Positions 23,770 through 46,944 of a stretch of DNA of 64,000 nucleotides are shown piece after piece. The notes under the pieces are model-generated. The model was not told where the DNA came from and did no database searches. It worked only from the letters and a program-made list of their open reading frames with translations. Each line of letters starts with the position of its first letter. Within the stretch, counting starts at the first letter, position 1. A program made the translations under genes and the position numbers. The stretch comes from an uncultured virus (IMG/VR IMGVR_UViG_3300046468_002484) (taxonomy: Duplodnaviria; Heunggongvirae; Uroviricota; Caudoviricetes): the IMG/VR virus record IMGVR_UViG_3300046468_002484, one strand, 5' to 3'.

Positions 23770-24605
23770 CTCTGTATATTTCCTTGTTCGTTTACAATCT
23801 TAGATTTTTGATCGGTGAATTCAAGATTCTTTGAATATTTTAAAACAAGAACTTCGTGTATTCTATTGCCACGAAACTTATTCTCAATTTTTAATAAGTT
23901 ATATTGAAATTCCGATACAAGTTTATGCATTTTATACAACTCACCCACATATAAATTATCAATACCAATCTGACCATCATTTACAGAAAATAAATGTTTT
24001 TTAGTTGGATCACTTCTCCATGAATTCGCTTGTCTAACAAATCCAGGAAATACAATTGAATTGATCTTGTTTTTTAAAAAAAATTCAATTCCACATTTTG
24101 TTTTTTTCAAAGTCTTCTCAGGTGATGCATAATAATGCTCCCAAGTTGGAAGTTCATTTATATCAAATCTTGTATTTACAATTGCATCGTAGTTTATTTG
24201 TGTCTCCACAATTGATTTAATTCCCTGAAAAATTCCAAACCACATTTTCTTCCACCCAAGTCGTGGACAGTTTCCACCCGAAACATTACCAGATAACTCT
24301 CCGTATAGTTTTATTTTCAAGTCATCAAAAATTGAAATTTTTTTAAGAGTAATGTTACAATTTGAAAAATACTTCCTAATTTTGCTTTCAGTTACCGTAT
24401 AGTCATCATTTGAAATTAATGTATTTTTGTGAGGTCTCCAGGTATCGTTTGACCTCACCTCACGAACATTCCATGTGCTAATGTACAAGTCAATATTGTA
24501 TAAATTTGCGAGACCATTTATATAATTCACAAGTTTGTCGTTGTCTAAACTTTTTTTTACATGACCACGTAACAAAATCGCAATATTTTGCTTATCATTC
24601 ATCAA
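23766..24605 (-). CDS. Putative glycan-modifying protein
   Basis: IAILLRGH, LYISTW, KMWFGI, YDAIVNTRFD, IDN..G, HE pattern typical of polysaccharide-locus GT-like proteins. Confidence 0.5.
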   Translation of the reverse strand: MMNDKQNIAILLRGHVKKSLDNDKLVNYINGLANLYNIDLYISTWNVREVRSNDTWRPHKNTLISNDDYTVTESKIRKYFSNCNITLKKISIFDDLKIKLYGELSGNVSGGNCPRLGWKKMWFGIFQGIKSIVETQINYDAIVNTRFDINELPTWEHYYASPEKTLKKTKCGIEFFLKNKINSIVFPGFVRQANSWRSDPTKKHLFSVNDGQIGIDNLYVGELYKMHKLVSEFQYNLLKIENKFRGNRIHEVLVLKYSKNLEFTDQKSKIVNEQGNIQR

Positions 24606-25207
24606 CTTTCTCCAAATTCATACCCAAAATACTCAATGTCTTTTGCGTATTTTTCCGCAACGATTTGTTTTGTTTCGTCATCGTAGTATTCGGTATAGTG
24701 CTTGTGTTTGCTTTTGTTTTTGTGTGGAAGTTGTTGTTGAGGAATTCCAATTTTGTCGCAGATAATATCAAAGTCTTCTTGGAGATTTTCAAATCTTCCG
24801 ATGAAGTCTGGAATCAATTCCCCGTTGTCATCACAAACCCATTTATATTGCTCCTTGAAATGAATTTGATTGAAAAGAATATCATCCCAATTCAACACCA
24901 TGTCTTCAAAACTAGAATATTGAGCTAAATATCTATTACAATCTTTCTTATCTCCCGAGGTTGTGTTACCGTTTTTTAAATAAAAATATACAGAAACCAA
25001 TCTATCCCAAGGATTTCTTGTAAAGGTAAAAATATATCCTGTAAAATCTTGATCAACTCTGTCTTTTAAATATTTAAAACTCTTTTTACGAGTATCATGT
25101 CCGTAGATAACACAGAATTTTTTACTATTACGGAATTTTCTTTTGACGGAGATACCACCACATTTTGGCATATGTACGAAGATATATTTATGTTTATAGT
25201 TAATCAT
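24602..25207 (-). CDS. Sulfotransferase family 2 protein carrying the conserved tail repeat
   Basis: HMPKCGG, TRNPWDRLVS, DFIGRFENLQEDF..YAKDIEYFGYEFGE. Confidence 0.88.
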   Translation of the reverse strand: MINYKHKYIFVHMPKCGGISVKRKFRNSKKFCVIYGHDTRKKSFKYLKDRVDQDFTGYIFTFTRNPWDRLVSVYFYLKNGNTTSGDKKDCNRYLAQYSSFEDMVLNWDDILFNQIHFKEQYKWVCDDNGELIPDFIGRFENLQEDFDIICDKIGIPQQQLPHKNKSKHKHYTEYYDDETKQIVAEKYAKDIEYFGYEFGES

Positions 25208-25251
25208 TATTATTTAATTTTTTGCTTTACTAATTTTTCTGATGTATGATT

Positions 25252-26130
25252 CTAATTGACAATATAAGTTTTTTTTGTTGTAGCAAATACAGCATTCATT
25301 TGTAATCCTGCATCTGTTCGTCTGAGGATATCATTATTTAGATTGTATATATATGAATCTCCGTTTCCGTCAATAAATCTCTTTAATGCTATCAAACCAG
25401 AAAATGTACTTCTTGACAAACCTATAAACTGCTTTGCTTGACAACATACCTCAAAATTTATCGCAGCGTTAACTTCATATTCTAACTTTGGATCAAAAAA
25501 GAAATTCGCCGAAATTCTGTTTGATATAAATTTTTCTTTAATATTGATGTGATTTTCTCCGGTAGTAAAAAATACACCCTCGTTGGTAAATTTTTTGTAC
25601 ATTTCAATTAAATCATCAAGTTTAATAAGCAGTGTTTCACCTATAGGTACATTCTTCCAATTATTGTATTCTTGCCAGTCTGATTCAATTCTAATCTGCA
25701 TCGCATTCAGTTCTTCATTAACATTTTGCTTAGAAATTAATTTGTTTTTTTTGTTTAATTCTAATGATCTTAAAACTGTTAGTTGCATACACGATTTTGG
25801 TATCATACAATCCCCACGCATTGATTTTCGACGTTTTTCGGAATAATTCCACAAATTAATATTATTTTGTTTAATTGTGTATTTAGATGCATCGTTATGT
25901 GGAATTATTAAGTTATGACCATTGTTATGTGGTTTCATGTTTTGATTAAATTTATCTAAATCGTATATATCCGAAAACAAAATGCTTCTCAATGGCCAAC
26001 CAAACTTTGGTTCTAGTATTTTTATATTATTTTTAATTGCAATATCACACGCACTAAAAAAACAATATAATTTATTACACAACCCACCCTTTAAGTTTAT
26101 TTTAATTATATTTTCAACCATCACAAACAT
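25252..26130 (-). CDS. O-fucosyltransferase-family (GT-B) protein
   Basis: LKGGLCNKL, MQIRIESDW, AAINFEVC..FIGLSRSTFS. Confidence 0.75.
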   Translation of the reverse strand: MFVMVENIIKINLKGGLCNKLYCFFSACDIAIKNNIKILEPKFGWPLRSILFSDIYDLDKFNQNMKPHNNGHNLIIPHNDASKYTIKQNNINLWNYSEKRRKSMRGDCMIPKSCMQLTVLRSLELNKKNKLISKQNVNEELNAMQIRIESDWQEYNNWKNVPIGETLLIKLDDLIEMYKKFTNEGVFFTTGENHINIKEKFISNRISANFFFDPKLEYEVNAAINFEVCCQAKQFIGLSRSTFSGLIALKRFIDGNGDSYIYNLNNDILRRTDAGLQMNAVFATTKKTYIVN

Positions 26131-26806
26131 TCTTTAAAAATTTATTGACACGGGTTCTGTGATGTAAAATTATAGTATTATCGTCAACATCTTTAAATCT
26201 CCAATTAAAAATTCTTTTTATTTTTTTGAATTTGATATTCATTGTATATAATGAATATCTAAATGCTCCTTGATCGCGATGATTTTTGTAATTTTTAACA
26301 AAAAAGTTTAACCAACTTTTCATTAACCGAACTATAATTTCATTGTTGTTAAAATATAATACTCCCGTGTTCATTTCCGTAAAATTTCTTGGTATTTCAA
26401 TAAATTTACCAACTGAATCTATCTCACGGGAACTCGGACCATATGGCACTGGTGCTTGAACTCCTACTATATCAAATTTAGTGAGCATATCAAATGGAAT
26501 CATAAAATCGTTTTTTAATATCATTGCGTCACTATCAATAAACAAAATCTTTTCATAATTTTTGTTTTTTAACAAAGTAATGATCCCCTGTATTTTATAG
26601 GCATGACCCTTTCCCTTTGGATAATTATTTGCCTCAACAACGACATCGTCAAATACTTTTTCTTTATTTTTATACTCTGCATCTGTATGCAATATCAAAT
26701 CGCATTGTTTAGGAATAAATTGCTTTGAGTATTTGGCTGCTCGTTTGGCTTCACTTATACACCTACTTCCAAATGCTGAATATAATATACAAATTTCTTT
26801 TTGCAT
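26114..26806 (-). CDS. GT-A nucleotide-diphospho-sugar transferase (GT8/77-like)
   Basis: LFIDSDA, EMNTGVL, RDQGAFR, ILHH. Confidence 0.7.
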   Translation of the reverse strand: MQKEICILYSAFGSRCISEAKRAAKYSKQFIPKQCDLILHTDAEYKNKEKVFDDVVVEANNYPKGKGHAYKIQGIITLLKNKNYEKILFIDSDAMILKNDFMIPFDMLTKFDIVGVQAPVPYGPSSREIDSVGKFIEIPRNFTEMNTGVLYFNNNEIIVRLMKSWLNFFVKNYKNHRDQGAFRYSLYTMNIKFKKIKRIFNWRFKDVDDNTIILHHRTRVNKFLKNVCDG

Positions 26807-26809
26807 AAT

Positions 26810-27067
26810 TTATTTTTCCTTGATCAAAAATTTCGGTTTATTCGGAAAATAACCTATTGGATTTTCATAAATTACATGATCACCATTATCTATTAATGTC
26901 ACAAAATCCTGATCAAATAAACTTACCTTATCCATCATCCTAGAAACACAATATAACCTTATTTCATATAATGCTTCATCTCGTGTACCATGAACACCAA
27001 TTATCTGATTACCAAATGTATCAATTACTTCATATTCCACCATCAACTCTCCTTTACAATAAATCAC
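26810..27067 (-). CDS. Hypothetical protein
   Basis: Short ORF tiled between neighbours; start may be the internal MVEYEV. Confidence 0.5.
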   Translation of the reverse strand: MIYCKGELMVEYEVIDTFGNQIIGVHGTRDEALYEIRLYCVSRMMDKVSLFDQDFVTLIDNGDHVIYENPIGYFPNKPKFLIKEK

Positions 27068-27659
27068 TATCTATTACCACCTTTAAATTTTTCGCATAAT
27101 ACAATCCCACAGGACTGATATAGTCACGTCCCAAACCCACAAAGTCTTCTAAATTTGCTTCTATCAAATTGTTTTCATACGATACATAAATCAACTCACT
27201 ACAATATAATTCTTTTATTCCCAATGAAAATTCGGCATCGTAAGTTGCATTCTGTAATGACTTGCACTTTGCAATTGCGTTTGAAAGTTGTTCGTCTGTT
27301 ATTTTCTTGCAACGCATTATCACAACACGGTCCGATTCTTTGCATATATCAAAAAAGCAACTCTTGGTATAATCCGAATGAGTCATTTCACTTACTTCCC
27401 AGTCTGCATCTAAACTAACGCACATCGCTGCATGAGAAAATTCTCCAGGAATCAATAGTGTCGTAAGTTTCTTTTTGTCAATTGTAAGAATAACATCCCC
27501 CGGAAGCAACTGCTGATATAAAGCATGATATTTTTTTCCACGAAGATTCGTATAATAAGTTGTAAAACGAATATACGGAATTACGTGTTTCAGCAAATAC
27601 CGATACATCTGTGTCTGCATAATATAGCCGACAATTCGTCTATAAAGTTTATTCACCAT
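27054..27659 (-). CDS. Permuted papain-like NlpC/P60 (YiiX/YebB-like) amidase/acyltransferase
   Basis: LLPGDVIL, FSHAAM, YD..F, LYCSELI. Confidence 0.8.
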   Translation of the reverse strand: MVNKLYRRIVGYIMQTQMYRYLLKHVIPYIRFTTYYTNLRGKKYHALYQQLLPGDVILTIDKKKLTTLLIPGEFSHAAMCVSLDADWEVSEMTHSDYTKSCFFDICKESDRVVIMRCKKITDEQLSNAIAKCKSLQNATYDAEFSLGIKELYCSELIYVSYENNLIEANLEDFVGLGRDYISPVGLYYAKNLKVVIDSDLL

Positions 27660-27674
27660 CTCCTTATATAAATA
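27610..27674. repeat. Direct repeat of promoter core plus gene 5' end, copy 1 (copy 2 at 29119-29183)
   Basis: 46 bp identical (27610-27655 = 29119-29164) extending to ~65 bp with 3 mismatches. Confidence 0.9.
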
Positions 27675-27696
27675 GAGAAAATCTTAGTTTTTATAA
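27668..27696 (-). promoter_or_regulatory. Bipartite phage promoter-like motif
   Basis: TTATAAAAACTA-N10-TATTTAT followed by AAGGAG ATG. Confidence 0.6.
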
Positions 27697-27749
27697 TAAA
27701 TTTAGTTTGATGTATTAGTTTATTATGTATACACTATTAACAAATTACA

Positions 27750-28055
27750 TCATTGACCAGCACCACGTTTACGATGAACCCAGAGAACACGAGAATATAA
27801 CCAATTTTTAATATTACGGTCGTTTAATATAAATTTTGAATCAGGAAATAATTTGTCTAATCTTTTGAAATCGCACATTTCTCCATCTGAATAACAAGTG
27901 TTATTTTTAAAAGCATTAAGTAGTTTTGCATCGGATAATGTTCTGCTCTTACCTGTCCATCTGGTATTATGCGTAGATTTAAATTGTTGACCGACAATTT
28001 TAGCATATGTTGTTGTACCAGTTTTGTTAAATCCTATAAAAAATATTTTATTCAT
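27750..28055 (-). pseudogene. 3'-truncated sulfotransferase (Sulfotransfer_4-like), paralog of 46941..47564
   Basis: KIFFIGFNKTGTTTY..CYSDGEMCDFKRLDKLFPDSKFILN; 101 aa versus 207 aa in the paralog. Confidence 0.7.
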
Positions 28056-28057
28056 TT

Positions 28058-28138
28058 TTATTCACCAAATTTGTATCCGAAATACTCAATGTCTTTTGCG
28101 TAAAGTTCCGCAATGATTTGTAAGGAATATTTAATCAT
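28058..28138 (-). pseudogene. Orphan sulfotransferase tail (mini-ORF MIKYSL-QIIAELYAKDIEYFGYKFGE)
   Basis: Matches the tail repeat from 28120 down to stop 28058. Confidence 0.85.
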
Positions 28139-28146
28139 ATTTTGTT

Positions 28147-29055: not shown

Positions 29056-29057
29056 CT

Positions 29058-29174
29058 TTAAATCTCTTTTATATTATATCCAACCGACTCAATATATTTG
29101 CTATCGTTTGTAACAATTTGTGTCTGCATAATATAGCCGACAATTCGTCTATAAAGTTTATTCATCATCTCCAT
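29058..29174 (-). pseudogene. Scar: duplicated 5' stub of gene 27054..27659 fused to a degenerate sulfotransferase-like tail
   Basis: MEMMNKLYRRIVGYIMQTQ|IVTNDSKYIESVGYNIKEI. Confidence 0.75.
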
Positions 29175-29176
29175 AG

Positions 29177-29205
29177 ATAAATATGAAGGAACGGAGTTTT
29201 TATAA
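29177..29205 (-). promoter_or_regulatory. Bipartite phage promoter-like motif
   Basis: TTATAAAAACTC-N10-TATTTAT. Confidence 0.6.
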
Positions 29206-29223
29206 AAAGTTCAGCGGGATATA

Positions 29224-29982
29224 TTACAAAGTAATATTTATCTTTTTAGGCAAATACCCATCATTCCATATTTTAAAATATTCTTTACAAAATCTTGACA
29301 TTTTGGTTCTAAATCCCATATGACCTCCCCACGAACCAACACCTCTAACTCTTTTGTGATTTTTTTTAGATTTTACATTATTATGCATATATTGTAAAAT
29401 ATTAGGAACGGTATAATTTGGGTTTCCATAATAGTTTGTTGCCACTGCTGACATAAAAATATCCTCCCCGTTCCAAAATGGTTTTCCTTCTTTTATTATT
29501 TCTGACGCAAGTGGTGCATACTTGAAAAATTCATATCCTAACTCTTTCTTAAATAACATACACTTGGTTAATACAATCATTACATCTCCAAAACTATTCA
29601 CATAATTGTATTTACATCCTTCTCTTAATATTCTTCCCCAAGAACCGACTATTCTATTTGGATTTTCAGTATACACATCGTATAAAGTTTTGAGTGCAAA
29701 TTCATTCGGATAACAATCATCATCTATCATTAAAATTATATCGTTTTTTGCATCTAATGCAGCTAAAAATCTACGACTAAGACCATAATATTCATTGACG
29801 TTTCCCCAATCTTTGCGATTCACAATTTTAGGATTATCAAATTCAAAATACGTATCTTCACGACCATGTGAAATAATAATTTCATCAATTAATTCATATT
29901 TTGTCATTATTGGCAAAATTACATCGTTAAGAACATGAGGTCTCAACCAGTTCATAACCACCATTGATATTTTTTTTTTCAT
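29224..29982 (-). CDS. GT64 (EXTL2-like) glycosyltransferase
   Basis: NWLRP, LSRRF, ILMIDDD, IVGSWGR, MIVLTK, NGEDIFMS, H..FR. Confidence 0.75.
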   Translation of the reverse strand: MKKKISMVVMNWLRPHVLNDVILPIMTKYELIDEIIISHGREDTYFEFDNPKIVNRKDWGNVNEYYGLSRRFLAALDAKNDIILMIDDDCYPNEFALKTLYDVYTENPNRIVGSWGRILREGCKYNYVNSFGDVMIVLTKCMLFKKELGYEFFKYAPLASEIIKEGKPFWNGEDIFMSAVATNYYGNPNYTVPNILQYMHNNVKSKKNHKRVRGVGSWGGHMGFRTKMSRFCKEYFKIWNDGYLPKKINITL

Positions 29983-30098
29983 TTTTTATTCTCCAAATTC
30001 ATAATTAAAATACTCAATGTCTTTTGCGTATTTTTCCGCAATGATTTGTGTCCGCCATGTAACACATAAAATGTGCCATATGTAATTACCCCTTTCAT
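29979..30098 (-). pseudogene. Scar: TagD-like cytidylyltransferase 5' stub fused out of frame to a sulfotransferase tail
   Basis: MKGVITYGTFYVLHGGH (cf. TagD MKKVITYGTFDLLHWGH) joined at 30048 to DNA encoding QIIAEKYAKDIEYFNYEFGE*. Confidence 0.85.
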
Positions 30099-36179: not shown

Positions 36180-37976
36180 CTAATATAACTTTCTTATTTG
36201 TTTCATAATTTCGTTTGGAAGATTTATATCCTGAATTATTTTATTATCTTTTAAAAATTCTTTATTAGAATTTTCAATAAATGCGTCATAATTAAAATTT
36301 ATCCAAGAGTTAATGTGAAATACACAATTATTTTTACAAAAATCATTTGTACCGAGCATCCATAACCAATTATCTAAATTATTCCATTTAGATAAACTCG
36401 ACAAATAGTTTTTGTAGTTTTTTAACCAATTTATTGTACAATTCGTACAATCACAGAAACAGACAACATTTATTAGTTTTCGTTCACAATAGTTTTTAAT
36501 GTAATTATTGTTTTTAATTATCATCAAACCTTCAATTGATGTTTTTACCTTGACGAAGGTTGAATATTTGCCAGAAATTCTTTTAAATTTGTATATTAAT
36601 TTGTTTTTAGAAATTTTTATATACTTTTTTTGAAATTCAACAAGATCATTGTTATTTGCATATCTGACAATAAAAAGGCACTCATTGCATTCGTTGTATG
36701 CTTCCGACTTCATTATTGTATCAATTACATTTAAGTCCGATTTATTTAAATCACAATATAAAATTATTGCGTCTAACTTTTCACGATACAAATATGGTGA
36801 TTCACTTAAATTTTTACTTATTTCACAAATATATTTTCGTTTTTCTTTATTATGTTGCTTACTTTGATTTTTCAAAATATCATTGTATTTTTCAATTCCA
36901 AGTTTTGGATCTAAAAATTGATTTTTGATTTTTGAACAATTAAGTTGTAGTAAGTTTAATTTTTTATCATTTTTAAAAATATTCAATACACCATTTGCAA
37001 GTTCATTTATATTTTCATATATTAGTCCCGTTTGATTGTGTATAATTGTTTCATTTACACCAATACAATTAGAAAGACAAAGTACCGGCAATTCATGTGA
37101 AATTGCTTCAATAACTGCATTACTTGTGCCTTCATACTCAGACAAATTAATCACAAAATCACACGAACTATAATAATCGTGAATATTATCAACATAATTT
37201 TGTAAATTTATGTAAGATTCAATATTTGGATTTTTTTCAACTTCTTGATTAAATTCAACATTCAACACCGAGTCAATAGGACCCACCAAATGAACTTCAA
37301 AGTCATTATATTGAGTTGAAATAAAATTCAATTTAGAAATAAATGGAATTATACTTTTTCTTGATTCACGCAGTCCATTTACCACCAAAATGTTATATTT
37401 TTTTTTGAAATTAATTTTTTCATATTTTGGTATTTTTACTGTATTGTAAAAACTGACTATTTTATTTTGAAGATGTCCGGGAATGTACTTACTAAAATTA
37501 TGATTTTCAAGACGAATTACATCGACCGATTCACATAAATCTGAATATGAAATACCCGTTGCTTTGTTTTTTGAATTGAACCATTTTTTAATAATCGAAG
37601 GATGATTTGTATCAAAATTAATCCAAAAAATATCATTGCGTAAAATATAATGTGATATAGAAATAAATTCATTAGAATCATAATCTAAAAGAGTTATTAA
37701 AATTGGATTAATCTGAGCATCTATATGTTTTGCTATATTTTCACAAATAAAGAATTTCCAATAGTCATCGTTACTTGGTATGTATATGTTCTTGATTGGA
37801 AGAATATTTCCGCATTCATCTTCGTCAATATCTAAATCTACACGAACATGACTCAACAACACTAAATTGTATTTATTCTGATTGTTTAATAATAAAATAA
37901 GGTCTTTTAGAACCTTACTTGACCCACCACCATTTATTTTACCACGATAGATGTAAATTGTTTGTTTAATGTCCAT
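36180..37976 (-). CDS. GT4 glycosyltransferase with C-terminal extension
   Basis: GGGSSKV, DFVINLSEYEGTSNAVIEAISHELPV, ETIIHNQTG. Confidence 0.8.
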   Translation of the reverse strand: MDIKQTIYIYRGKINGGGSSKVLKDLILLLNNQNKYNLVLLSHVRVDLDIDEDECGNILPIKNIYIPSNDDYWKFFICENIAKHIDAQINPILITLLDYDSNEFISISHYILRNDIFWINFDTNHPSIIKKWFNSKNKATGISYSDLCESVDVIRLENHNFSKYIPGHLQNKIVSFYNTVKIPKYEKINFKKKYNILVVNGLRESRKSIIPFISKLNFISTQYNDFEVHLVGPIDSVLNVEFNQEVEKNPNIESYINLQNYVDNIHDYYSSCDFVINLSEYEGTSNAVIEAISHELPVLCLSNCIGVNETIIHNQTGLIYENINELANGVLNIFKNDKKLNLLQLNCSKIKNQFLDPKLGIEKYNDILKNQSKQHNKEKRKYICEISKNLSESPYLYREKLDAIILYCDLNKSDLNVIDTIMKSEAYNECNECLFIVRYANNNDLVEFQKKYIKISKNKLIYKFKRISGKYSTFVKVKTSIEGLMIIKNNNYIKNYCERKLINVVCFCDCTNCTINWLKNYKNYLSSLSKWNNLDNWLWMLGTNDFCKNNCVFHINSWINFNYDAFIENSNKEFLKDNKIIQDINLPNEIMKQIRKLY

Positions 37977-38104
37977 GTAGTAAATTTATATGAGTTTTTC
38001 ACACAATATAAATATTACTTTTTATAATAATTTAATCAAATCTCTGGTGGAAGTAGTTTTTCAACTACCTTCAGTAACCTTCCAATCTATTATTAAAAGG
38101 CTTC

Positions 38105-38513
38105 TGGAGGTAGCGGGATTTGAACCCGCGTCTTTATATCCTTCTTTCCAAACGTCTACACGTTTATTTTGTCGTAAATTTCAAAAAGTTACCCAACAAA
38201 CAAGTCTACCTTTTCTATTCGTTTTATTGTTATACAGAGTTTCCAACGAAAAAACAATCTCTGGTTCCACGATTGTTGACGCCAACACCAAACTAGTCGT
38301 GTGATCATTTGGGTGACGGGGTGGGCTTATTTATGCCACCAACACAGCTTCCGCTTCTTCTAAAGCAGAGAATTCTGCTTCTGCGTCTGCGAGAAGGTCT
38401 GCAACGAATGTATCTTCGCCATTTAAACAATTTAATACATTTTGAGAAGGCCGTGTATTATCCTTCACGTGCAGTTTGGATATCTAAATACAAATCGAAT
38501 CCAGAATACCCCC
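38105..38513 (-). ncRNA. ssrA: tmRNA (one-piece, 3' CCA not encoded)
   Basis: 5' GGGGGTATTCTGGATTCGA; 3' GACGCGGGTTCAAATCCCGCTACCTCCA; acceptor stem with G3-U wobble; pseudoknot 1 (GAAGG/CCTTC plus TAATACA/TGTATTA); TAAAT then tag ORF 38420-38331. Confidence 0.95.
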
Positions 38514-38895: not shown

Positions 38896-38943
38896 TTACT
38901 CTCCAAATTTATACCCGAAATACTCAATGTCTTTTGCACATTG
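38896..38943 (-). repeat. Orphan sulfotransferase tail
   Basis: QCAKDIEYFGYKFGE* in frame after the TAA of 38944..39618. Confidence 0.85.
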
Positions 38944-39618
38944 TTACAACACCTCTCTGTCTGCGATCCTTGGCCTCTTGTACACATAGGATGGTTGTTT
39001 GTTATCCCACCCAAGCTTTAGTGCAGAGTGCGGTATTTTTTCATCTATTTGAACCATGTTATCCACGATATGTTTAACTTGTTCGTCTTCGTCATATAAA
39101 TCTGTTAATGTTTGATGAAAAGTAAAATATTTCCAGTGTTCACTGTTTTTGAATACTGTAACAAACTTAGTTTTCCATTTTTCTATAATATAATGATTAG
39201 GTTTGTTCACGCACATAAACCAACTCACAACTTCGCACAATCCGGCTTTTCGATTATACGAACCACGTGGTATATACCGATATGAAAAAAAACCTGTATT
39301 ATTCACTATTTTTTCATAAAAGTCAGAAAGTGGTAGCATGGGATATACACTGGCATCCGCCCACACCCCCCCAAACTTTGATAGCAACAATACTCTTAAC
39401 AAGTCAGACTTTGCCGCCTTTCTTCGGAATGGAGAATTTTTAATTATATCAAAATATTCAGGAACATAATCAGAAATTGTTTCATTTGACAAAACATTCA
39501 CTATCCAGTCGGGATTTAATTCTTTCCAACGACTAATACACTTTCTGGCCATGGGACCACATGAATCATCATCCTCTCCTTGAAACCAGCACATCCACAT
39601 TGTTTTATTTTTATTCAT
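38944..39618 (-). CDS. Capsular polysaccharide synthesis protein (GT32-like)
   Basis: WMCWFQG, KSDLLRVLLLSKFGGVWADAS, SWFM, YFTFH. Confidence 0.85.
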   Translation of the reverse strand: MNKNKTMWMCWFQGEDDDSCGPMARKCISRWKELNPDWIVNVLSNETISDYVPEYFDIIKNSPFRRKAAKSDLLRVLLLSKFGGVWADASVYPMLPLSDFYEKIVNNTGFFSYRYIPRGSYNRKAGLCEVVSWFMCVNKPNHYIIEKWKTKFVTVFKNSEHWKYFTFHQTLTDLYDEDEQVKHIVDNMVQIDEKIPHSALKLGWDNKQPSYVYKRPRIADREVL

Positions 39619-39806
39619 TTTGATAAAATTTTATATTGATTTTCAGACAATAAATTTAAATCATTTAAATTTTCTATAACATCATAGTTTTTATGTAAAT
39701 ATTTTTTTAAAATGATTTTAGATTGTTTGCTCACGGATTGTTTATATTTCTTGTTATTCTTTTTGGGAATATGAACAAATATAAATTTATGTTTATGACT
39801 TATCAT
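39615..39806 (-). pseudogene. Internally deleted gene: sulfotransferase head fused to an unrelated C-terminus
   Basis: MISHKHKFIFVHIPK|KNNKKYKQSVSKQSKIILKKYLHKNY..; 63 aa. Confidence 0.7.
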
Positions 39807-40974: not shown

Positions 40975-40977
40975 ATC

Positions 40978-41610
40978 TTACTCTCCAAATTTATACCCGA
41001 AATACTCAATGTCCTTCTTGTACTTCTCCGCAACAAGCTCCCTCGTTTCGTCATCGTAGTATTCACTGTAGTGTTTGTGTTTGTTTTTGTTTTTATGTGG
41101 AAGTTGTTGTTGAATTCCAATTTTGTTACAGATTATGTTAAAGTCTTCTTGGAGATTTTCAAATCTTCCGATGAAATCTGCTTTTAAATTTTTATTTTCA
41201 CATATCAAAAAAGGATGTTGTTCACAAATGTGGAATAATAAAGCATTTTTTGCTTTTCCATTTTTTGGATTTATTTTTAAATTTTTAAGATTTCTGCAAA
41301 AATCTACAAAGTTCAAGTTCCAGTCCTTACCGTGAGAACCAAATTTCCAACTTGAAACTGCACGATCCCACGGATTCCTTACAAAACCAAAAGTAAAAAT
41401 ATTATTTTGTTTTAGATCAAACCATTTTTGACTTCTTTTCATAACATTTAGGTAGTATCTTGTATCAAAATACAATATCGCATTCTGTCTTGATTTGAAA
41501 AAGTTTTGTGCTTCGTAAAGCTTTCTTGTCTTTTTAAATAAAGATATAACTGAAGTGGATGCTGTTTTTGGAATCCGTAAGAAGAGTGCTTTTTTGTAAT
41601 TTTTTTTCAT
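40978..41610 (-). CDS. Sulfotransferase family 2 protein
   Basis: RIPKTASTS, VRNPWDRAVS, conserved tail. Confidence 0.88.
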   Translation of the reverse strand: MKKNYKKALFLRIPKTASTSVISLFKKTRKLYEAQNFFKSRQNAILYFDTRYYLNVMKRSQKWFDLKQNNIFTFGFVRNPWDRAVSSWKFGSHGKDWNLNFVDFCRNLKNLKINPKNGKAKNALLFHICEQHPFLICENKNLKADFIGRFENLQEDFNIICNKIGIQQQLPHKNKNKHKHYSEYYDDETRELVAEKYKKDIEYFGYKFGE

Positions 41611-41613
41611 CTC

Positions 41614-41739
41614 TTACTCTTCAAATTTGTATTCGTAATACTCAGTATCTTTTGCACACTGTTCCTCAACGATTGAACGAGTTTCATCATCGTAGTATTT
41701 TGTATAGTGTTTATGCTCTGTTTTGTTTATTTTTGACAT
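41614..41739 (-). pseudogene. Degenerate orphan sulfotransferase tail
   Basis: [41 protein letters not shown]. Confidence 0.85.
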
Positions 41740-41747
41740 ATTGTAAT

Positions 41748-42563
41748 TTATTTAAGGGTTTTTATACTAAAATCTTTTATCATTTCATCTGTACATATTT
41801 TTTGATTGCGGAACGTCTTATTGTTTCTGCCAGAGTGTTGTTCATCGTGTGTACAATTATATATTGCACTGAAAAATGGTACTAATCCTCCATTGAAACC
41901 TTTTTTTGTGAAAAAATCAAATGAAAATGGATGAGCACCAATTATCATTTTCAAGTAATAATTGTTTGTTGTTTGCAAGACACGATCTTGTGGTGATAAT
42001 ATGTTTATTCCGTAAAAATCTATTTCTTTTTTAATTAATTCAACTTTTGTTATATTACAAGTTCCACACACTATATTAAATCTACGCAAAAAATTAAATT
42101 TATTCCTTTTACCAAGTTTATATCCTTTAACGATTTTTAAAAAATCTTTATCAGAATTATTTACATACTCTGCCAATTTTTTATGAATAAAATCGTCTGC
42201 ATCAACAAACATAACATAATGATTTTCATTATTTACCTTTTGAACCTGACTCACTGCAAGTATATACTTAGACCCCTTATCGATTCTAGCTTGATTTACT
42301 CCGTCCTCCTTAGATATTTGAGTTTTTATCTGCCATGCATCAGAAGATGCAGGTGGTTCCCAGTCAACTTCAATAAATTTAACATTTTTAATTTTTGGAT
42401 TATTCGAAAAATCATGTAATGTCTTGTTAGACACAACAATGACATCAAAATTTTTATCTGTTTGGTTACAAACAGAAACAAGCGTATTTTCCAAAAGTTT
42501 CCATGTTGATTCATACGAATGGCAATTTTCGTAATGTTTAACACATATAATAAAAGTTATCAT
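41748..42563 (-). CDS. GT-A (GT2-like) glycosyltransferase
   Basis: [27 protein letters not shown]. Confidence 0.75.
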
Positions 42564-42569
42564 AATAAT

Positions 42570-43154
42570 TTATTCTCCAAACTCATAATTAAAATACTCA
42601 ATATCTTTTGCGTATTTTTCCGCAACGATTTGACGAGTTTCATCATCGTAGTATTCTGTATAATGTTTGTGTTTTGTGTTGTTGTGGTGTGGAAGTTCTT
42701 GGTGGGGAATTTTAATTTTGTCGCAGACGATTTTAAAGTCTTCCTGAAGGTTTTCAAATCTACCGATGAAATCCATGTTCACACTACCTTTTGCATCTGT
42801 GATCCAGTCAAGTTGATCTGATAACATAAGAAGTTTAAATTTGCTAGGAGTATTGAAATATTTCGGGTTCTTATCATAGATATGTTTTGCCCATTCTTTA
42901 AAGGGTATGGGATTACTACCAAGCTTTGTTTGATTTGTTTTTATTCGGTACTTGTACAAGGATAAGAATCTGTCCCAACTGTTTCTTACGAAAGTGAATT
43001 TAAAATAATCGTTAGAAGATGCTTCTTTATTTAAGTCAATAATTGATTGATGTTTTTTAAATTTGTTTGAATACTTCTTTAATAGCACTTCAATACTCGT
43101 ACCTCCATTTTTATTGATATGAACAAAAATAAATTTATGTTTATGACTTATCAT
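42570..43154 (-). CDS. Sulfotransferase family 2 protein
   Basis: HINKNGGTS, VRNSWDRFLS, conserved tail. Confidence 0.88.
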   Translation of the reverse strand: MISHKHKFIFVHINKNGGTSIEVLLKKYSNKFKKHQSIIDLNKEASSNDYFKFTFVRNSWDRFLSLYKYRIKTNQTKLGSNPIPFKEWAKHIYDKNPKYFNTPSKFKLLMLSDQLDWITDAKGSVNMDFIGRFENLQEDFKIVCDKIKIPHQELPHHNNTKHKHYTEYYDDETRQIVAEKYAKDIEYFNYEFGE

Positions 43155-43157
43155 TTC

Positions 43158-43739
43158 TCATTCTCCAAATTCATAATTAAAATACTCAATGTCTTTTGCA
43201 TATTTTTTGGCAACTAATCCTCTTGTTTCGTCATCGTAGTATTCGGTATAGTGTTTGTGTTTGCTTTTGTTTTTGTGTGGAAGTTCTTGTCGTTCAATTC
43301 CAATTTTATCGCAGATGGTGTCGAAGTCTTGCTGAAAGTTTTCAAATCTTCCGATGAAATCTACTGAAATTTCATTAGATTCACTTACTAAGAACTCGTG
43401 TTGATTTTTGATCGCAAGATTGAAATGATAAAGCTTGATTTTCTGAGCATCTTCACAGCATAAAAACCTGATCCACTCCTGAAAAGACCCTCCATGATTA
43501 AACATACTAAGTGATCGTTTAATCCGAAACTTATAGTATGATACCATCCGATCCCACGGATTTCTGACAAATGTAAATGTAAAATATTTTTTTAAAAACT
43601 CACTGCCTATATCGCTAACCATATTGTGTTTTCCAGTTACATCTTTTATATGTGCATTTCTTATAAATAAAGATTCTATTGACGTTCCACCCGTTTTAGG
43701 TATGTGAACAAAAATAAATTTATGTTTATGATCTATCAC
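43158..43739 (-). CDS. Sulfotransferase family 2 protein
   Basis: HIPKTGGTS, VRNPWDRMVS, conserved tail. Confidence 0.9.
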   Translation of the reverse strand: MIDHKHKFIFVHIPKTGGTSIESLFIRNAHIKDVTGKHNMVSDIGSEFLKKYFTFTFVRNPWDRMVSYYKFRIKRSLSMFNHGGSFQEWIRFLCCEDAQKIKLYHFNLAIKNQHEFLVSESNEISVDFIGRFENFQQDFDTICDKIGIERQELPHKNKSKHKHYTEYYDDETRGLVAKKYAKDIEYFNYEFGE

Positions 43740-43742
43740 ATC

Positions 43743-44357
43743 TCACTCTCCAAATTTATACCCGAAATACTCAATATCTTTTGCGTATTTTTTCGCAACA
43801 ATCTCACGAGTTTCATCATCGTAGTATTCAGTGTAGTGTTTGTGTTTTGTTGAATTTCTATGAGGAAGTTGTTGCAGAGGAATGCCAATCTTGTCGCAGA
43901 TTATATTAAAGTCTTCTTGCAGGTTTTCATATCTACCGATGAAATCTACGTCTTCACTTAGATACTGTAATTGTGACCAATCTTCATCTCTTTGGCCTGA
44001 TTTTATTTTTGAATTGTATCGATGAGCAGAAAATGGTAAGTTGCAGGCAACTATTTGTTTAACATAATTTTCAAAACATAACGAGGATTCTGAAAGTCCT
44101 GCTTTCTTCCACCATTTCTTTCCCGTAAATTTAAATTGTGACACAAGTCTATCAAATGGATTTCTCACAAATGCAAAGAAAAAATAATCTTTATTAACTG
44201 TTTCACGAACCCGTTTGTTATTCAAATACTCAGAATAGGTAAAATGCTTTTTACGATACGAAAAATGAATACAGTATTTATGTAATACCCTTTCTACTGA
44301 AGTGGTTCCCGTTTTAGGGACGGCTATAAATACGAATTTATGTTTATGATCTATCAC
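43743..44357 (-). CDS. Sulfotransferase family 2 protein
   Basis: AVPKTGTTS, VRNPFDRLVS, conserved tail. Confidence 0.9.
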   Translation of the reverse strand: MIDHKHKFVFIAVPKTGTTSVERVLHKYCIHFSYRKKHFTYSEYLNNKRVRETVNKDYFFFAFVRNPFDRLVSQFKFTGKKWWKKAGLSESSLCFENYVKQIVACNLPFSAHRYNSKIKSGQRDEDWSQLQYLSEDVDFIGRYENLQEDFNIICDKIGIPLQQLPHRNSTKHKHYTEYYDDETREIVAKKYAKDIEYFGYKFGE

Positions 44358-44360
44358 ATC

Positions 44361-44960
44361 TCACTCTCCAAATTTATACCCGAAATACTCAATATCTTTT
44401 GCGTATTTTTTCGCAACAATTTTACGAGTTTCATCATCGTAGTATTCGGTGTAATTATTTCTATTGTAATTCTTTAAACCTCTTCCCGCATGTTCTACCT
44501 CATAAACTTCTTGATATTTCAACCCATAATCTTTACATATATTATAGTGTGCATTATATTCTTGTTTGTACCATTTTACTTTTATGTTGAATTTATTCTC
44601 TATAATTGTATGTTGATGCAATGTCTCACTGAAAAGTAGTCGTGGTCTATCGCACACTAAAAAATCTTTAAAGCTTGGAAATTTACCTTTATTAAAATTA
44701 TTATAGAAAGAAAGCAATCTACAATATGGATTTCTGACGATTGTGACTACATCGAGTCCATTTATTTTGCTCACATTATGTTTATTTATACCCGAGTGTT
44801 GTCTGTCTATATGCCAAGTTTTCTGCCACCCCAACCCATTAAGTCGTGGAAAGGAGTTGCGATGATCCTTTGCTATGTAGGAAGATAATATTTTGGTCAG
44901 ACTTGATCCAGATGTTTTAGGTATATGAATGAAGCAAAATTTGTCTTTAACTACAATCAT
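44361..44960 (-). CDS. Divergent sulfotransferase family 2 protein with grafted conserved tail
   Basis: HIPKTSGSS, VRNPYCRLLS; lacks DFIGRFENL yet ends YTEYYDDETRKIVAKKYAKDIEYFGYKFGE. Confidence 0.85.
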   Translation of the reverse strand: MIVVKDKFCFIHIPKTSGSSLTKILSSYIAKDHRNSFPRLNGLGWQKTWHIDRQHSGINKHNVSKINGLDVVTIVRNPYCRLLSFYNNFNKGKFPSFKDFLVCDRPRLLFSETLHQHTIIENKFNIKVKWYKQEYNAHYNICKDYGLKYQEVYEVEHAGRGLKNYNRNNYTEYYDDETRKIVAKKYAKDIEYFGYKFGE

Positions 44961-44963
44961 CTC

Positions 44964-45071
44964 TCAGTCTCCAAAATTATAACCGAAATACTCAGTGTCC
45001 TTTGCAAATTTTTCCGTAACGATTTGTTTTGTTTCGTCAACATAGTAATCTGTGTAATATTTGTGATTTGT
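44964..45071 (-). pseudogene. Degenerate orphan sulfotransferase tail
   Basis: [35 protein letters not shown] in frame after the TGA of the GT32 gene. Confidence 0.85.
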
Positions 45072-45728
45072 TCAAGATTCATCATTCTGCCAACTAGAAT
45101 TCCACCAGTGAGCAGCGAATGCGTCTGGATATTTTTTTTTCAATTCTGTGTGTGTTAGTTTTTTATTTATTCTTTTATCTTTCCACAAAAAGGGGTACAC
45201 ATATGTTGGATCAAACTTTGCAGATTTCTTATACGAGCTTCCATAAGTATCATCTACCATATTAGTCACATATGCTGGACCATATTTTTGTACGCAATGT
45301 TCTTTTTGATGAGTTTTTGTTCTTTGATCAATGCCATCCACTAACTTTTTAACAAAAGTGTTGTGTTTTGTAGATGCTAAAAATGCACCACATATATATG
45401 GACCCGAATGTCGTTGTCGATAAAATATAAAGTCGTCATCACCGAATAGAGGATCAATTGGTTTTAAACATTCAAAATCCGTGTCAATATATAGTCCACC
45501 AAACTGAAACAATATATCAAATCTTAATATATCAGACTTCATTGAATAATTATCACAATCATTTAAATATTGCTCATTGATTATGTTTAAAGTTTTAAGT
45601 TTTTCATCATCCCATAAAATAAATTCCCATTCTGGATTATATTCTTTCCAAGTATTTTGCCATTTAAGTTCCTGTTCAGACAATGGTCTCTTACCCATGT
45701 GTATTTGATGTATAATTTTTGGTATCAT
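45072..45728 (-). CDS. GT32 (DXD sugar-binding) glycosyltransferase
   Basis: MIPKIIHQI, KSDILRFDILFQFGGLYIDTDFECLKP, HWWNSSW. The ORF-track N-extension is an alternative frame of the repeat. Confidence 0.9.
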   Translation of the reverse strand: MIPKIIHQIHMGKRPLSEQELKWQNTWKEYNPEWEFILWDDEKLKTLNIINEQYLNDCDNYSMKSDILRFDILFQFGGLYIDTDFECLKPIDPLFGDDDFIFYRQRHSGPYICGAFLASTKHNTFVKKLVDGIDQRTKTHQKEHCVQKYGPAYVTNMVDDTYGSSYKKSAKFDPTYVYPFLWKDKRINKKLTHTELKKKYPDAFAAHWWNSSWQNDES

Positions 45729-45732
45729 TTTC

Positions 45733-46341
45733 TCATTCTCCAAATTCATATCCGAAATATTCAATGTCTTTTGCGTATTTTTCCGCAACAATTTGCCTTG
45801 TTTCGTCATCGTAGTATTCGGTGTAATGTTTGTGTTTTGTTTTGTTTTTGTGTGGAAGTTCTTGTTGAGGGATTCCAATTTTGTCGCAGATTATATTAAA
45901 GTCTTCTTGGAGATTTTCTATTTTGCCAATAAAATCAGTTACAATGTTTCCTCTCAGATCACACAACCAATTATATTGCAAAGCACCAGTGTTGTCATTA
46001 GAAATATAATCACATTCCCATTTTCTTATCCGTCTAATAAATTGTTTAATATCAAGTGACTTGCACCCGCTGCGCCTCTGTCTATAAAAATAACGCGAAA
46101 CAAGTCTATCCCAAGGATTTCTCACAAATGAAAACTTAAAGTAATTTTTGGTTTGATCGTTTATCATCTGCCTCATATTTTGATGCTTTCTCTGATTTAA
46201 GTGTCCGTATAATTTATTGATTGGAATGTCAATGTGTTCCTTCTTAAATTTATCACAATATTTCGCAAGAACCGTGTCAATAGAAGTTCCTCCGCACTTA
46301 TTAATGTGACAAAACAAGAATTTATGTTTATGACTTATCAT
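45733..46341 (-). CDS. Sulfotransferase family 2 protein
   Basis: HINKCGGTS, VRNPWDRLVS, conserved tail. Confidence 0.9.
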   Translation of the reverse strand: MISHKHKFLFCHINKCGGTSIDTVLAKYCDKFKKEHIDIPINKLYGHLNQRKHQNMRQMINDQTKNYFKFSFVRNPWDRLVSRYFYRQRRSGCKSLDIKQFIRRIRKWECDYISNDNTGALQYNWLCDLRGNIVTDFIGKIENLQEDFNIICDKIGIPQQELPHKNKTKHKHYTEYYDDETRQIVAEKYAKDIEYFGYEFGE

Positions 46342-46344
46342 TTC

Positions 46345-46944
46345 TTACTCTCCAAATTCATAATTAAAATACTCAATGTCTTTTGCGTATTTTTTTGCAA
46401 CAATTTCTCTCGTTTCATCATCGTAGTATTCGGTATAGTGTTTGTGTTTGCTTTTGTTTTTGTGTGGAAGTTCTTGTCGTTCAATTCCAATTTTGTCGCA
46501 GATTGTATCAAAGTCTACTTGGAGGTTTTCAAATCTTCCGATAAAGTCTACATTTTTAACCATCCGTGTGTGTGTCCAGTGGCATTGTGGTCTGACGTGT
46601 GAGTTGTTTTTAGATTTTTTGACAAATTTTTTAAATGACGTATCTTCACTCACTTTGCTCCACTTTTGCACCTTCAAATACTTCCACGCAGATACAATCC
46701 TTGAATACGGATTTCTTACGAAACAAAATTTAAAATAAGTTGAATTCTCAGTTGGTGATATAAAATTAAATCTTTCCAATTGTGCCAAGTTGTAATGTTG
46801 GATTGGTCTACGTTTTATCGAATCCATGCCGATCCCATAGTTTATTTTATCTTTCCCAGTCCAGGCTCCAAATGCTCTCTCAATACTATGACCCGCCGTT
46901 TTTGGAATATGAATAAAAATAAATTTATGTTTATGATTTATCAT
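46345..46944 (-). CDS. Sulfotransferase family 2 protein
   Basis: HIPKTAGHS, VRNPYSRIVS, conserved tail. Confidence 0.9.
   Translation of the reverse strand: MINHKHKFIFIHIPKTAGHSIERAFGAWTGKDKINYGIGMDSIKRRPIQHYNLAQLERFNFISPTENSTYFKFCFVRNPYSRIVSAWKYLKVQKWSKVSEDTSFKKFVKKSKNNSHVRPQCHWTHTRMVKNVDFIGRFENLQVDFDTICDKIGIERQELPHKNKSKHKHYTEYYDDETREIVAKKYAKDIEYFNYEFGE

Follow-up and report, generated by a model that had tools for sequence, protein, structure and literature searches.

Conserved coding junctions as probable sites of homologous recombination in a tandem sulfotransferase array of an uncultured marine phage

The window analyzed here, a 64,000-nt stretch of DNA, has all of its large ORFs on the minus strand. 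The DNA comes from an uncultured marine phage, and within its very large glycan-synthesis island lies a tandem family of genes for PAPS-type carbohydrate sulfotransferases (Table 1). All ten intact genes listed in a preliminary description of the sequence as sharing a common tail, within positions 24602 to 46944, matched Sulfotransfer_2 (PF03567) when 31 proteins were scanned against Pfam, with scores of 32 to 99.5 bits (cut-off, 22 bits). One of them, ST24602, sits 15 kb from the main array, and its tail copy belongs to repeat families D2 and D4. Scanning another 40 proteins identified five more paralogs beyond this interval (at 1554, 14900, 51524, 54873, and 62222), PF03567 being matched by 15/15 paralogs of the window.

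TABLE 1 Features of the array (ST genes and their low coordinates; o1 to o5, orphan tails)
Feature	Coordinates	Strand	Evidence and remarks
ST24602, intact sulfotransferase with conserved tail	24602..25207	minus	PF03567, E 5.2e-20
o1, last 21 codons plus stop	28058..28120	minus	translation; profile E 2.7e-13 (28059-28126)
o2	29986..30048	minus	translation; profile E 1e-12 (29987-30049)
o3, 14 codons	38896..38943	minus	translation; tail profile (38897-38945)
Capsule-synthesis-type glycosyltransferase	38944..39618	minus	PF05704, E 7.6e-32
Chimeric remnant ORF	39615..39806	minus	translation; head copy in repeat family D8
ST39808	39808..40419	minus	PF03567
ST40423	40423..40974	minus	PF03567
ST40978	40978..41610	minus	PF03567, E 8.1e-17
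o4, ~40 codons	41614..41739	minus	translation; tail profile (41615-41716)
GT2-like glycosyltransferase	41748..42563	minus	PF00535, E 2.5e-5; directly after ST42570 tail
ST42570	42570..43154	minus	PF03567
ST43158	43158..43739	minus	PF03567; tail carries one 77-nt exact repeat copy
ST43743	43743..44357	minus	PF03567; 86-nt exact repeat at both junctions
ST44361	44361..44960	minus	PF03567
o5, ~36 codons	44964..45071	minus	translation; tail profile (44965-45067)
GT32-type glycosyltransferase	45072..45728	minus	PF04488, E 4e-14
ST45733, paralog chosen for fold model	45733..46341	minus	PF03567, E 4.5e-28
ST46345	46345..46944	minus	PF03567; tail carries second 77-nt exact repeat copy

The products share PF03567 and the sulfotransferase fold with known Sulfotransfer_2 carbohydrate sulfotransferases but differ from them in being very short (183 to 225 aa), phage-borne, and arrayed. 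No NCBIfam model was found, and no paralog matched a solved structure by sequence at E below 0.1. The top fold matches of an AlphaFold model of ST45733 (pLDDT 85.8) were PAPS sulfotransferases, the nearest solved fold being heparan sulfate 6-O-sulfotransferase (5t03; TM 0.58-0.60), with an E value of 2.6e-3 that falls above the 1e-3 line of the fold-search tool.

Each sulfotransferase gene comprises three conserved blocks, i.e., a head, a central block, and a tail of ~200 nt at the 3' coding end (the last ~65 codons), separated by two variable stretches. The latter correspond to the low-confidence parts of the ST45733 model and, we infer, probably set acceptor specificity. The tail is modeled with a strand at residues 137-140 and helices at 141-155 and 173-196 (pLDDT 86-98), and is predicted to encode three helices in addition to a core strand. 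Together with the stop codon, a spacer of 3 to 8 nt, and the first codons of the next gene, the tail forms a conserved junction. In an alignment of the window tails, 9 of 11 had GGAG within their last codons, some 8 nt ahead of the following ATG. Because the junction thus carries a stop codon, a ribosome-binding site, and the next start, an exchange inside it leaves both neighbors intact and translatable.

Exact repeats in the window reach 86 to 88 nt. The two reported in the preliminary description, of 86 nt (43717-43802 = 44335-44420) and 77 nt (43231-43307 = 46418-46494), are both real and maximal, and a repeat search recovered a 77-nt tail unit in 17 copies and a 128-nt unit in 14. The two longest identical runs in the junction alignment (70 and 57 columns after gapping) were matched by none of 1,000 column shuffles (null maximum, 41), a test that overstates significance because it ignores the clustering of conserved columns.

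The five orphan tails noted previously were also confirmed, each translating to tail peptide that ends at a stop, and all were re-detected with a nucleotide tail profile (Table 1). Their lengths are 48, 63, 63, 108, and 126 nt. These sequences, which are not translated as sulfotransferase, match intact tails 8 to 17 kb away exactly over 28 to 46 nt: o1 matches the ST40423 tail over 28 nt, o2 those of ST46345 and ST43158 over 46 and 40 nt, and o3 the end of the ST40978 tail over 37 nt. The final codons of o1 provide GGAG just before the ATG of a truncated Sulfotransfer_4 gene (27750-28055), and o2 stands directly before a GT64 gene (29224-29982); o3 and o5 lie in frame after the stops of the capsule-type glycosyltransferase and GT32, respectively, and o4 is degenerate at several residues conserved in other tails. 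L054 carries o5 as well. Six other IMG/VR contigs have tail stubs or minigenes made of a head and a tail (L008, L010, L012, L022, L026, and L034). An orphan sulfotransferase head, missing from the earlier list, was found at 39742-39806, where its ~15 first codons are joined to ~45 C-terminal codons from a different gene family, which resemble ORF ends in L026 and L006.

As previously described, GT2, GT32, and the capsule-type glycosyltransferase are each bracketed by tails; the upstream one is intact and the downstream one an orphan. GT32 stands where a sulfotransferase head and body would be, with its true start at 45728, four bases past the upstream stop; a longer ORF extending to 45878 was rejected as a gene by frame check, being an out-of-frame run through the upstream tail. 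The capsule-type gene sits between the orphan head and o3. The further suggestion that these genes are cassettes mobile between tails was not sustained. GT2 homologs (52 to 59% identity) directly follow a sulfotransferase in 11/11 related IMG/VR loci, with a tail after GT2 in 0/11, and the GT32 homologs in L055 and L056 (63 to 65%) have no flanking tails. A capsule-type homolog in L030 (63%) directly follows a sulfotransferase tail without an o3-like tail. A better reading of the orphan tails is that they remain from sulfotransferase genes in which glycosyltransferase genes replaced the 5' parts.

The tails might be alike simply because this is an ordinary tandem gene family in which the C-terminal strand and helices are essential, the orphans being random pseudogene debris and the tails having no particular part in recombination. 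This explanation fits the confident modeling of the tail in the fold core and also its synonymous divergence. The near-zero dS predicted for tails did not materialize: median pS was 0.55 to 0.59, below the 0.69 to 0.73 seen for head and central block yet well above zero, so most of the likeness between tails reflects protein constraint. Moreover, the nearest tail lay in the same genome for only 6/84 genes, the same count as given by bodies, and tails show no general homogenization within genomes. Against a purely protein-level cause, among same-residue codon pairs the fraction of identical codons was 0.725 and 0.689 in the two tail halves (expected, 0.575 and 0.546) versus 0.575 in the head (expected, 0.511) and 0.525 in the middle (expected, 0.507), with rare GC-ending codons in tails retained across paralogs. 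Nor does an ordinary gene family account for the exact matches of 37 to 46 nt between untranslated orphans and intact tails.

Comparison with related contigs revealed mosaic patterns of identity. In the only four window genes for which close body counterparts exist elsewhere, nucleotide identity was in every case lower in the tail than in the body: 0.816 versus 0.974 for ST42570 against L006 (flanks unrelated), 0.871 versus 0.972 for ST44361 against L054, 0.856 versus 0.908 for ST43743 against L034, and 0.831 versus 0.857 for ST39808 against L041. This is the opposite of what purifying selection would give. Similarly, the window and L054 show 60 mismatches, of which tails, with 200 nt, account for 35 and the other ~1,230 nt for 25. 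The two L054 tails agree with each other at 58/60 terminal bases, compared with 53/60 and 54/60 for agreement with their positional orthologs, and have four derived bases in common, although L054 is a single 1.7-kb metagenome contig that could be chimeric at a repeat. In the phage lineage with two sulfotransferases (STa and STb) and then GT2, most close pairs show tail identity at least equal to body identity, a pattern of plain vertical descent. Overall, 97%-identical orthologous bodies with 82 to 87%-identical tails, together with the codon excess, make a mere gene family a rather unlikely explanation.

The tail DNA pattern was found in 42 stretches on 35 IMG/VR contigs and in only 2 stretches among 185,579 species genomes. 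In higher-GC phages the sulfotransferase genes fall below their locus in GC; e.g., the ST42570 body has a GC content of 0.29 in both the window and L006, against 0.41 for the L006 locus. We read these data as indicating a shared pool of sulfotransferase genes among phages.

Gene content also differs among relatives at the tails, as had been anticipated. Between the syntenic loci L053 and L045 the difference is exactly one sulfotransferase gene, with tail stop codons as its boundaries, and the one- and two-gene forms are each seen in several contigs. In related phages, the tail of STb (the second sulfotransferase) is followed by GT2, by a GT25-like gene, or by an empty slot. The homology of L054 to the window (96% identity) ends exactly at the ST44361 stop codon. 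L030 lacks ST39808, the head stub, and o3, its counterpart of ST40423 (73% aa identity) being directly followed by the capsule-type glycosyltransferase.

Tail DNA could instead be kept mainly for expression, as ribosome-binding site, translational coupling, promoter, or RNA structure, which would explain the persistence of stubs. The regularly placed GGAG and the position of o1 and o2 directly before the start codons of non-sulfotransferase genes are in keeping with such a role. It would, however, cover only the last ~15 nt and not 100 to 200 nt, and would leave unexplained why orthologous tails are more diverged than bodies. Promoter-like sites were not enriched (50 found versus 51.1 +/- 6.7 expected) and the consensus fold was weak (-6.3 kcal/mol, covariation term 0.03, compensatory change in 1/16 pairs). 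We therefore regard expression as an improbable main cause.

Metagenome assembly produced the window, L054, and the IMG/VR loci alike, and repeated tails might have given chimeric joins, hence the mosaics and reshuffled orders. Exact repeats reaching 86 to 88 nt are in keeping with such errors, and many short-sided joints of Logan contigs map to tails and heads. Logan k=31 contigs break inside intact tails, so that body order across intact tails rests on the window assembly. Yet o3, o4, and o5 with their flanking genes are bridged by exact Logan contigs (0 differences) in three or four runs that belong to different studies (o4 in X2, 41146-42612, and X4, 41146-42202; o5 in X2, X3, and X5). In addition, L006 and L021, which come from two assemblies, are identical over 4 kb, the ST42570 body being 97.4% identical to L021 too. 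The recurrence of the one- versus two-gene difference in several contigs per side, and a divergence spread over 200 nt of tail in 97%-identical genes, are also unlike chimeric joins, making an assembly artifact very improbable.

A true site-specific cassette system, in which an unseen recombinase encoded elsewhere in the genome treats the junction as att and moves circular cassettes, would accommodate the gene-exact indel between L053 and L045 and the conservation of the junction across many phages. However, the Pfam scans found no integrase, recombinase, or transposase families among the 71 proteins of the 64 kb, in agreement with the preliminary description; the junction has no conserved hairpin; and no circle junction was interpretable in the Logan contigs of the runs examined. 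Breakpoints are scattered, with stubs of 48 to 126 nt and identity transitions at different places. A site-specific system is accordingly highly unlikely, and the proposed integron-like array with a coding att is not supported.

Ordinary homologous recombination at the conserved coding junction, without a site-specific recombinase, is the probable explanation for the array. The earlier idea of the junction as a homologous-recombination anchor is thus upheld as regards exchange and gene gain, loss, and replacement at tails, but not its integron/att mechanism or near-zero dS. General recombination between junctions, within one genome and between co-infecting phages, would swap gene bodies, add or delete whole genes, and patch tails by gene conversion; occasional illegitimate joins would bring other glycan genes into the array, leaving sulfotransferase tail and head stubs. 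From sequence comparison we infer both the pathway, probably of the relaxed kind permitted by phage recombinases, and co-infection as its setting. Phages could in this way swap, gain, and lose variable sulfotransferase bodies without a dedicated integrase.

Integrons gain and lose cassettes through the IntI tyrosine recombinase, attI, and folded attC sites. The array resembles them as a one-directional series of single-gene units, each with a similar end sequence, that are gained and lost. It differs in that no tyrosine recombinase, folded attC-like site, fixed crossover point, or circles were found in it, and in that its repeat forms part of the gene product. In CDI/Rhs orphan toxin-immunity modules, pilE/pilS, and trypanosome VSG, variable parts are swapped by way of homology in a conserved coding segment, stubs that retain some of the conserved sequence build up beside expressed genes, and one expressed gene draws on silent copies. 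The phage array shares the use of coding homology and the partial stubs, but its full units are all intact and apparently expressed genes, and exchange also appears to occur between different phage genomes.

Work on defective prophages and temperate coliphages has proposed that relaxed homologous recombination by phage Rad52-like recombinases, acting on homologies that are short and diverged, gives rise to phage mosaics (De Paepe et al. 2014, PMC3945230). Tails that are 80 to 95% identical with exact runs of 20 to 90 nt would suit the process as described there, a link that is indirect since no recombinase was identified in the window. The closest known system is PeSL-mediated modular shuffling in T4-type phages. 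PeSLs are described as short conserved repeats flanking nonessential genes in the hyperplastic region, homologous recombination between which yields insertions, deletions, and replacements among close relatives without an integrase, with mini-circles shown physically (2010, PMC2839356; Comeau et al. 2014, PMC4122927). An intergenic promoter-like motif elsewhere in the window, separate from the tails, may behave like a PeSL. Conserved repeats, homologous exchange between close relatives, and independence from an integrase are common to PeSLs, as so described, and, on the reading favored here, the sulfotransferase array. According to the same accounts, however, the PeSL is an intergenic promoter-terminator unit, whereas the repeat in this phage is coding sequence plus stop, ribosome-binding site, and next start, so that exchange also rebuilds an enzyme.

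The ten sulfotransferase genes of the array (183-210 codons each) are all intact, as the preliminary description had it, and match Sulfotransfer_2; its two exact repeats (86 and 77 bp) are both true and maximal, the five orphan tails, i.e., copies of the conserved 3' coding end that it listed without a gene body (o1 to o5), are all real by translation and tail profile, and each of three glycosyltransferase genes (GT2, GT32, and a capsule-type GT) is flanked by an intact tail on one side and an orphan tail on the other. Five more paralogs are found elsewhere in the window, and 15 of 15 match the Sulfotransfer_2 profile (PF03567) with 32 to 99.5 bits (cut-off 22). Their alignment has three common blocks, a head of ~20 codons, a central Arg-Asn-Pro-Trp-Asp block, and a tail of ~65 codons, and the two stretches between these blocks align poorly among paralogs. 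Neighbouring genes meet in a junction of tail, stop codon, spacer, and first codons of the next gene. In 9 of 11 aligned tails, the final codons contain GGAG ~8 nt ahead of the following ATG, so that the junction couples neighbouring genes translationally.

Features of the sulfotransferase array and its surroundings (window coordinates)
Feature	Position	Strand	Basis or remark
Array of ten intact sulfotransferase genes	24602-46944	-	Sulfotransfer_2 matches
Orphan tail o1	28058-28120	-	translation, tail profile
Orphan tail o2	29986-30048	-	translation, tail profile
Orphan tail o3	38896-38943	-	translation, tail profile
Orphan tail o4	41614-41739	-	translation, tail profile
Orphan tail o5	44964-45071	-	translation, tail profile
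Orphan head fused to tail end of another gene family	39615-39806	-	translation
Capsule-type GT	38944-39618	-	
GT2	41748-42563	-	
GT32	45072-45728	-	true start 45728, four bases after upstream stop; longer ORF to 45878 is an out-of-frame run through upstream tail
GT1 gene	36180-37976	-	
Sulfotransfer_4 gene, half-length (101 aa)	27750-28055	-	
Sulfotransfer_4 gene, full-length paralog (207 aa)	46941-47564	-	
Gene debris near o1/o2	27607-27717, 29116-29226		83% identical pair
ORF with DUF6492 domain (530 codons)	49935-51527	-	
Sulfate-activation and sugar-donor genes	2227-8117, 55545-58261	-	PAPS synthesis at 5275-8117
Subtilase-like gene	8225-9556	-	15-nt period at 8424-8645
Paralogs without Pfam family	12627-13319, 54232-54870	-	
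Longest exact direct repeat (88 nt, +54 nt more)	13204-13291, 54782-54869		5' ends of these two paralogs
tmRNA	38102-38513	-	RF00023, 128 bits
Strong promoter-like site	38580-38552		just upstream of tmRNA
Intergenic 14-mer motif	10108, 12597, 27686, 29195, 30125, 38017, 57402		<=1 mismatch; + strand coordinates

Across 86 aligned sequences, K15 in the N-terminal phosphate loop is nearly invariant and R74, N75, and S82 in the central Arg/Ser block are invariant; we take the phosphate-loop lysine and this central block to be the PAPS-binding residues. In an AlphaFold model of one paralog, ST45733 (86 sequences, pLDDT 85.8), the tail is placed with high confidence and consists of a core strand with three helices, the variable stretches being the low-confidence parts. 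The top PDB fold matches among those listed for this model are PAPS sulfotransferases, the best being 5t03, a heparan sulfate 6-O-sulfotransferase (TM 0.58-0.60; E 2.6e-3, weaker than the 1e-3 line). Searched by sequence, the PDB gave no match below E 0.1, and no NCBIfam model was matched by the 7 proteins tested. For transfer of sulfate from PAPS to a glycan acceptor, the PAPS-synthesis genes of the window are circumstantial evidence. The 530-codon ORF opens with a head and body of sulfotransferase type (27% identity to ST45733 across ~160 residues), to which the DUF6492 domain is fused, and looks like a fusion product of the sulfotransferase family.

Likeness of the tails is in part due to protein need. 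The near-zero dS predicted for them by the preliminary description did not materialize, median pS being 0.55 in one half of the tail and 0.59 in the other; the remaining conserved blocks of these genes lie above the tails, at 0.69 and 0.73. Identical codons make up a fraction of 0.725 in tails against an expected 0.575, and of 0.525 against 0.507 in the middle of the genes. Rare GC-ending codons are retained across paralogs in tails, and the two longest identical runs were reached in 0 of 1000 column shuffles, a generous control. Exact runs of 28-46 nt are shared by the untranslated orphan tails with intact tails many kilobases distant and likewise point to exchange with other copies.

The decisive evidence on this question is supplied by comparisons with relatives. 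Four window genes have a close counterpart, each on a different contig and with different neighbours, and in all four the identity of the tail is below that of the body: ST42570 against locus L006, 0.974 in the body and 0.816 in the tail; ST44361 against L054, 0.972 and 0.871; ST43743 against L034, 0.908 and 0.856; and ST39808 against L041, 0.857 and 0.831. The ST42570-L006 pair is 93-100% identical between the start codon and the point where the tail begins, with 70-90% identity in its own tail and 66-80% in that of the upstream gene. A second assembly, L021, reproduces L006 exactly, and the body common to both genes has 29% GC within a locus of 41% GC. Between the window and L054, 35 of 60 mismatches fall within 200 nt of tails; the two L054 tails agree mutually at 58 of 60 bases, but at only 53 and 54 of 60 with the orthologs at their positions. 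The tail is thus most conserved among paralogs and least conserved between recent orthologs, which argues for exchange with other copies, not selection.

This exchange seems to run across genomes. Within-genome concerted evolution as a general rule was rejected, since only 6 of 84 genes have their nearest tail within their own genome. Most close gene pairs in the STa-STb-GT2 lineage (named for its first and second sulfotransferases, which GT2 follows) have tails as similar as their bodies, a pattern of plain descent. The tail DNA pattern has 42 matching stretches, spread over 35 IMG/VR contigs (locus GC 0.31-0.45), many of which hold arrays; among 185,579 species genomes it has only two.

The comparison of relatives for cassette presence, proposed beforehand, was borne out by two syntenic loci, L053 and L045, which are 78-90% identical over 19 kb and differ by exactly one sulfotransferase gene, the indel being bounded at the stop codons of two tails. 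The slot that directly follows the STb tail holds, within this lineage, GT2, a GT25-like gene, or nothing. L054 tracks the window through GT32, o5, and ST44361, where an unrelated gene begins exactly at the tail stop. In L030, the capsule-type GT comes immediately after a counterpart of ST40423; ST39808, a head stub, and tail stub o3 are extra in the window. Six other contigs between them hold stubs of tails, a stub joined in frame to a further ORF, and two minigenes of head and tail that lack a body. The minigenes (L012 9005-9040 and L034 11265-11342, locus coordinates), with a phosphate-loop head joined directly to a tail and ~35-50 codons in all, look like emptied cassettes. The notion that glycosyltransferase cassettes move between tails was not supported: GT2 directly follows a sulfotransferase in 11 of 11 related loci, with no tail after it, and GT32 has homologs without flanking tails in L055 and L056.

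No integrase or recombinase family was detected among the 71 proteins of the 64-kb window, in agreement with the preliminary description, and its integron-like att site found no counterpart either, with no IntI-type recombinase among these proteins and no attC-like hairpin fold in 16 tails. Stub lengths range from 48 to 126 nt and there is therefore no fixed crossover point. A conserved RNA structure in the tail was rejected (covariation term 0.03), the consensus fold of the 16 tails (-6.3 kcal/mol) having no conserved hairpin and compensatory change in 1 of 16 pairs. A promoter in the tail was likewise rejected, with 50 promoter-like sites against 51.1 +/- 6.7 expected; terminator-like sites numbered 7 against 4.0 +/- 2.0 expected.

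At the read level, the unique parts of the window are matched exactly by k=31 contigs from four seawater runs. These contigs bridge o3, o4, and o5 and the genes on either side, which speaks against assembly errors at these junctions; a part without a bridging contig counts neither way. Within intact tails the contigs break, and the order of bodies across intact tails thus follows the window assembly alone. They contained no interpretable circle junction; joints that go back have short sides (38-49 nt) and lie within repeats. Most joints at tails and heads have sides of 21-52 nt, with the sequence in between not given, and were not counted as variants.

The intergenic 14-mer has 14 copies against 0.97 expected, most of them 25-40 nt upstream of minus-strand gene starts, and probably serves the phage as a promoter of its own. 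In other seawater runs there are contigs that connect 31244 with 38034 (side 70 nt, the motif lying at the joint) and 29172 with 30106, which suggests strain variants without the 6.8 kb and 0.9 kb between 14-mer copies; such variants would be PeSL-like. The debris near o1 and o2 is a copied 5' end, with upstream region, of a peptidase C92-like gene, and the half-length Sulfotransfer_4 gene belongs to this debris as well. The paralogs sharing the longest direct repeat are 41.6 kb apart and form another gene family in which one end has been exchanged recently. The subtilase-like gene has nine overlapping copies of its 15-nt period, forming a short repetitive linker of acidic/proline type.

The window has ~31% GC, all sizeable ORFs are on the minus strand, and its DNA is present in seawater metagenomes of many studies. 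This presence in seawater, a phage-type PD-(D/E)XK nuclease and a dNMP kinase, a one-piece tmRNA, and the lack of a match among deposited phages point to a large uncultured phage as the source. Glycan-building enzymes account for most of the coding content of the 64 kb, with genes for PAPS, GDP-fucose, and dTDP-rhamnose synthesis. CysN-like, CysD-like, APS kinase, GDP-mannose dehydratase, epimerase, and RmlA-, RmlB-, and RmlD-like genes accompany ~15 sulfotransferases and many glycosyltransferases; together they seem to equip the phage to build a sulfated glycan with donors that it supplies itself. A complete one-piece tmRNA lies mid glycan island, with an unusual tag (ARAGORN) ending in LVA instead of the usual LAA; SAR11 would presumably carry a two-piece tmRNA. 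The possibility that the DNA comes from a SAR11 hypervariable region (10.64898/2026.04.03.716430) was set aside because of the one-piece tmRNA, the phage-type genes, and the near absence of the tail pattern from species genomes. Megablast with window 8000-24000, L006, and L053 found no close relative among deposited phages, and tblastn with ST45733 returned only 3 records, all <30% identical. IMG/VR yielded no relatives of GT32, the full-length Sulfotransfer_4 gene, or the GT1 gene, and the ST45733 body had no ortholog >50% identical among 79 loci.

Conjointly, the observations show how the junctions are built, that tails are mosaic, that genes are gained, lost, or replaced at tails with gene-exact boundaries, and that several phages carry stubs. 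They are best explained by general, probably relaxed, homologous recombination between junctions, both within arrays and between co-infecting phages, with occasional illegitimate joins that import other glycan genes and leave stubs. If the variable stretches set acceptor specificity, recombination would re-pattern sulfation; the prediction is that variable bodies determine the acceptor and that tails are interchangeable. Bodies 97% identical across genomes of 31% and 41% GC point to sulfotransferase modules that circulate among marine phage lineages as a common pool, which bears on the speed of change in phage-made sulfated glycans. The array provides a concrete sequence-level case of integrase-free enzyme-gene reshuffling in phages, with a crossover zone inside coding sequence built so that every recombinant remains in frame and translationally coupled.

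A further, rather doubtful reading is that the junction is a selected "plug-and-play" connector and not a by-product. Its DNA would at once encode the helices that close the enzyme, the stop, and both the ribosome-binding site and the first codons of the next gene, and marine phages that differ in lineage and base composition would keep it in order to draw sulfotransferase specificity modules from one shared pool. Such a connector would allow quick re-patterning of a sulfated glycan coat and be a viral counterpart of cassette-based surface variation without a dedicated recombinase.

Our literature search found no paper on phage sulfotransferase arrays. Integrons, CDI and Rhs orphan modules, and pilS or VSG conversion provide analogies to the array. 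PMC12619734 does not mention sulfotransferases. The closest known system is the PeSL-mediated modular shuffling of T4-type phages (PMC2839356, PMC4122927), and relaxed recombination by phage recombinases (PMC3945230) is the likely machinery. The principle is the same in that here, too, indels and replacements between close relatives end in a repeated short unit, as seen for L053 and L045, the slot variants after the STb tail, and L054 and the window. The PeSL repeat, however, is an intergenic promoter plus terminator stem-loop, whereas the unit described here is coding sequence that doubles as an expression joint. The array would thus work like a PeSL system while not being a member of it.
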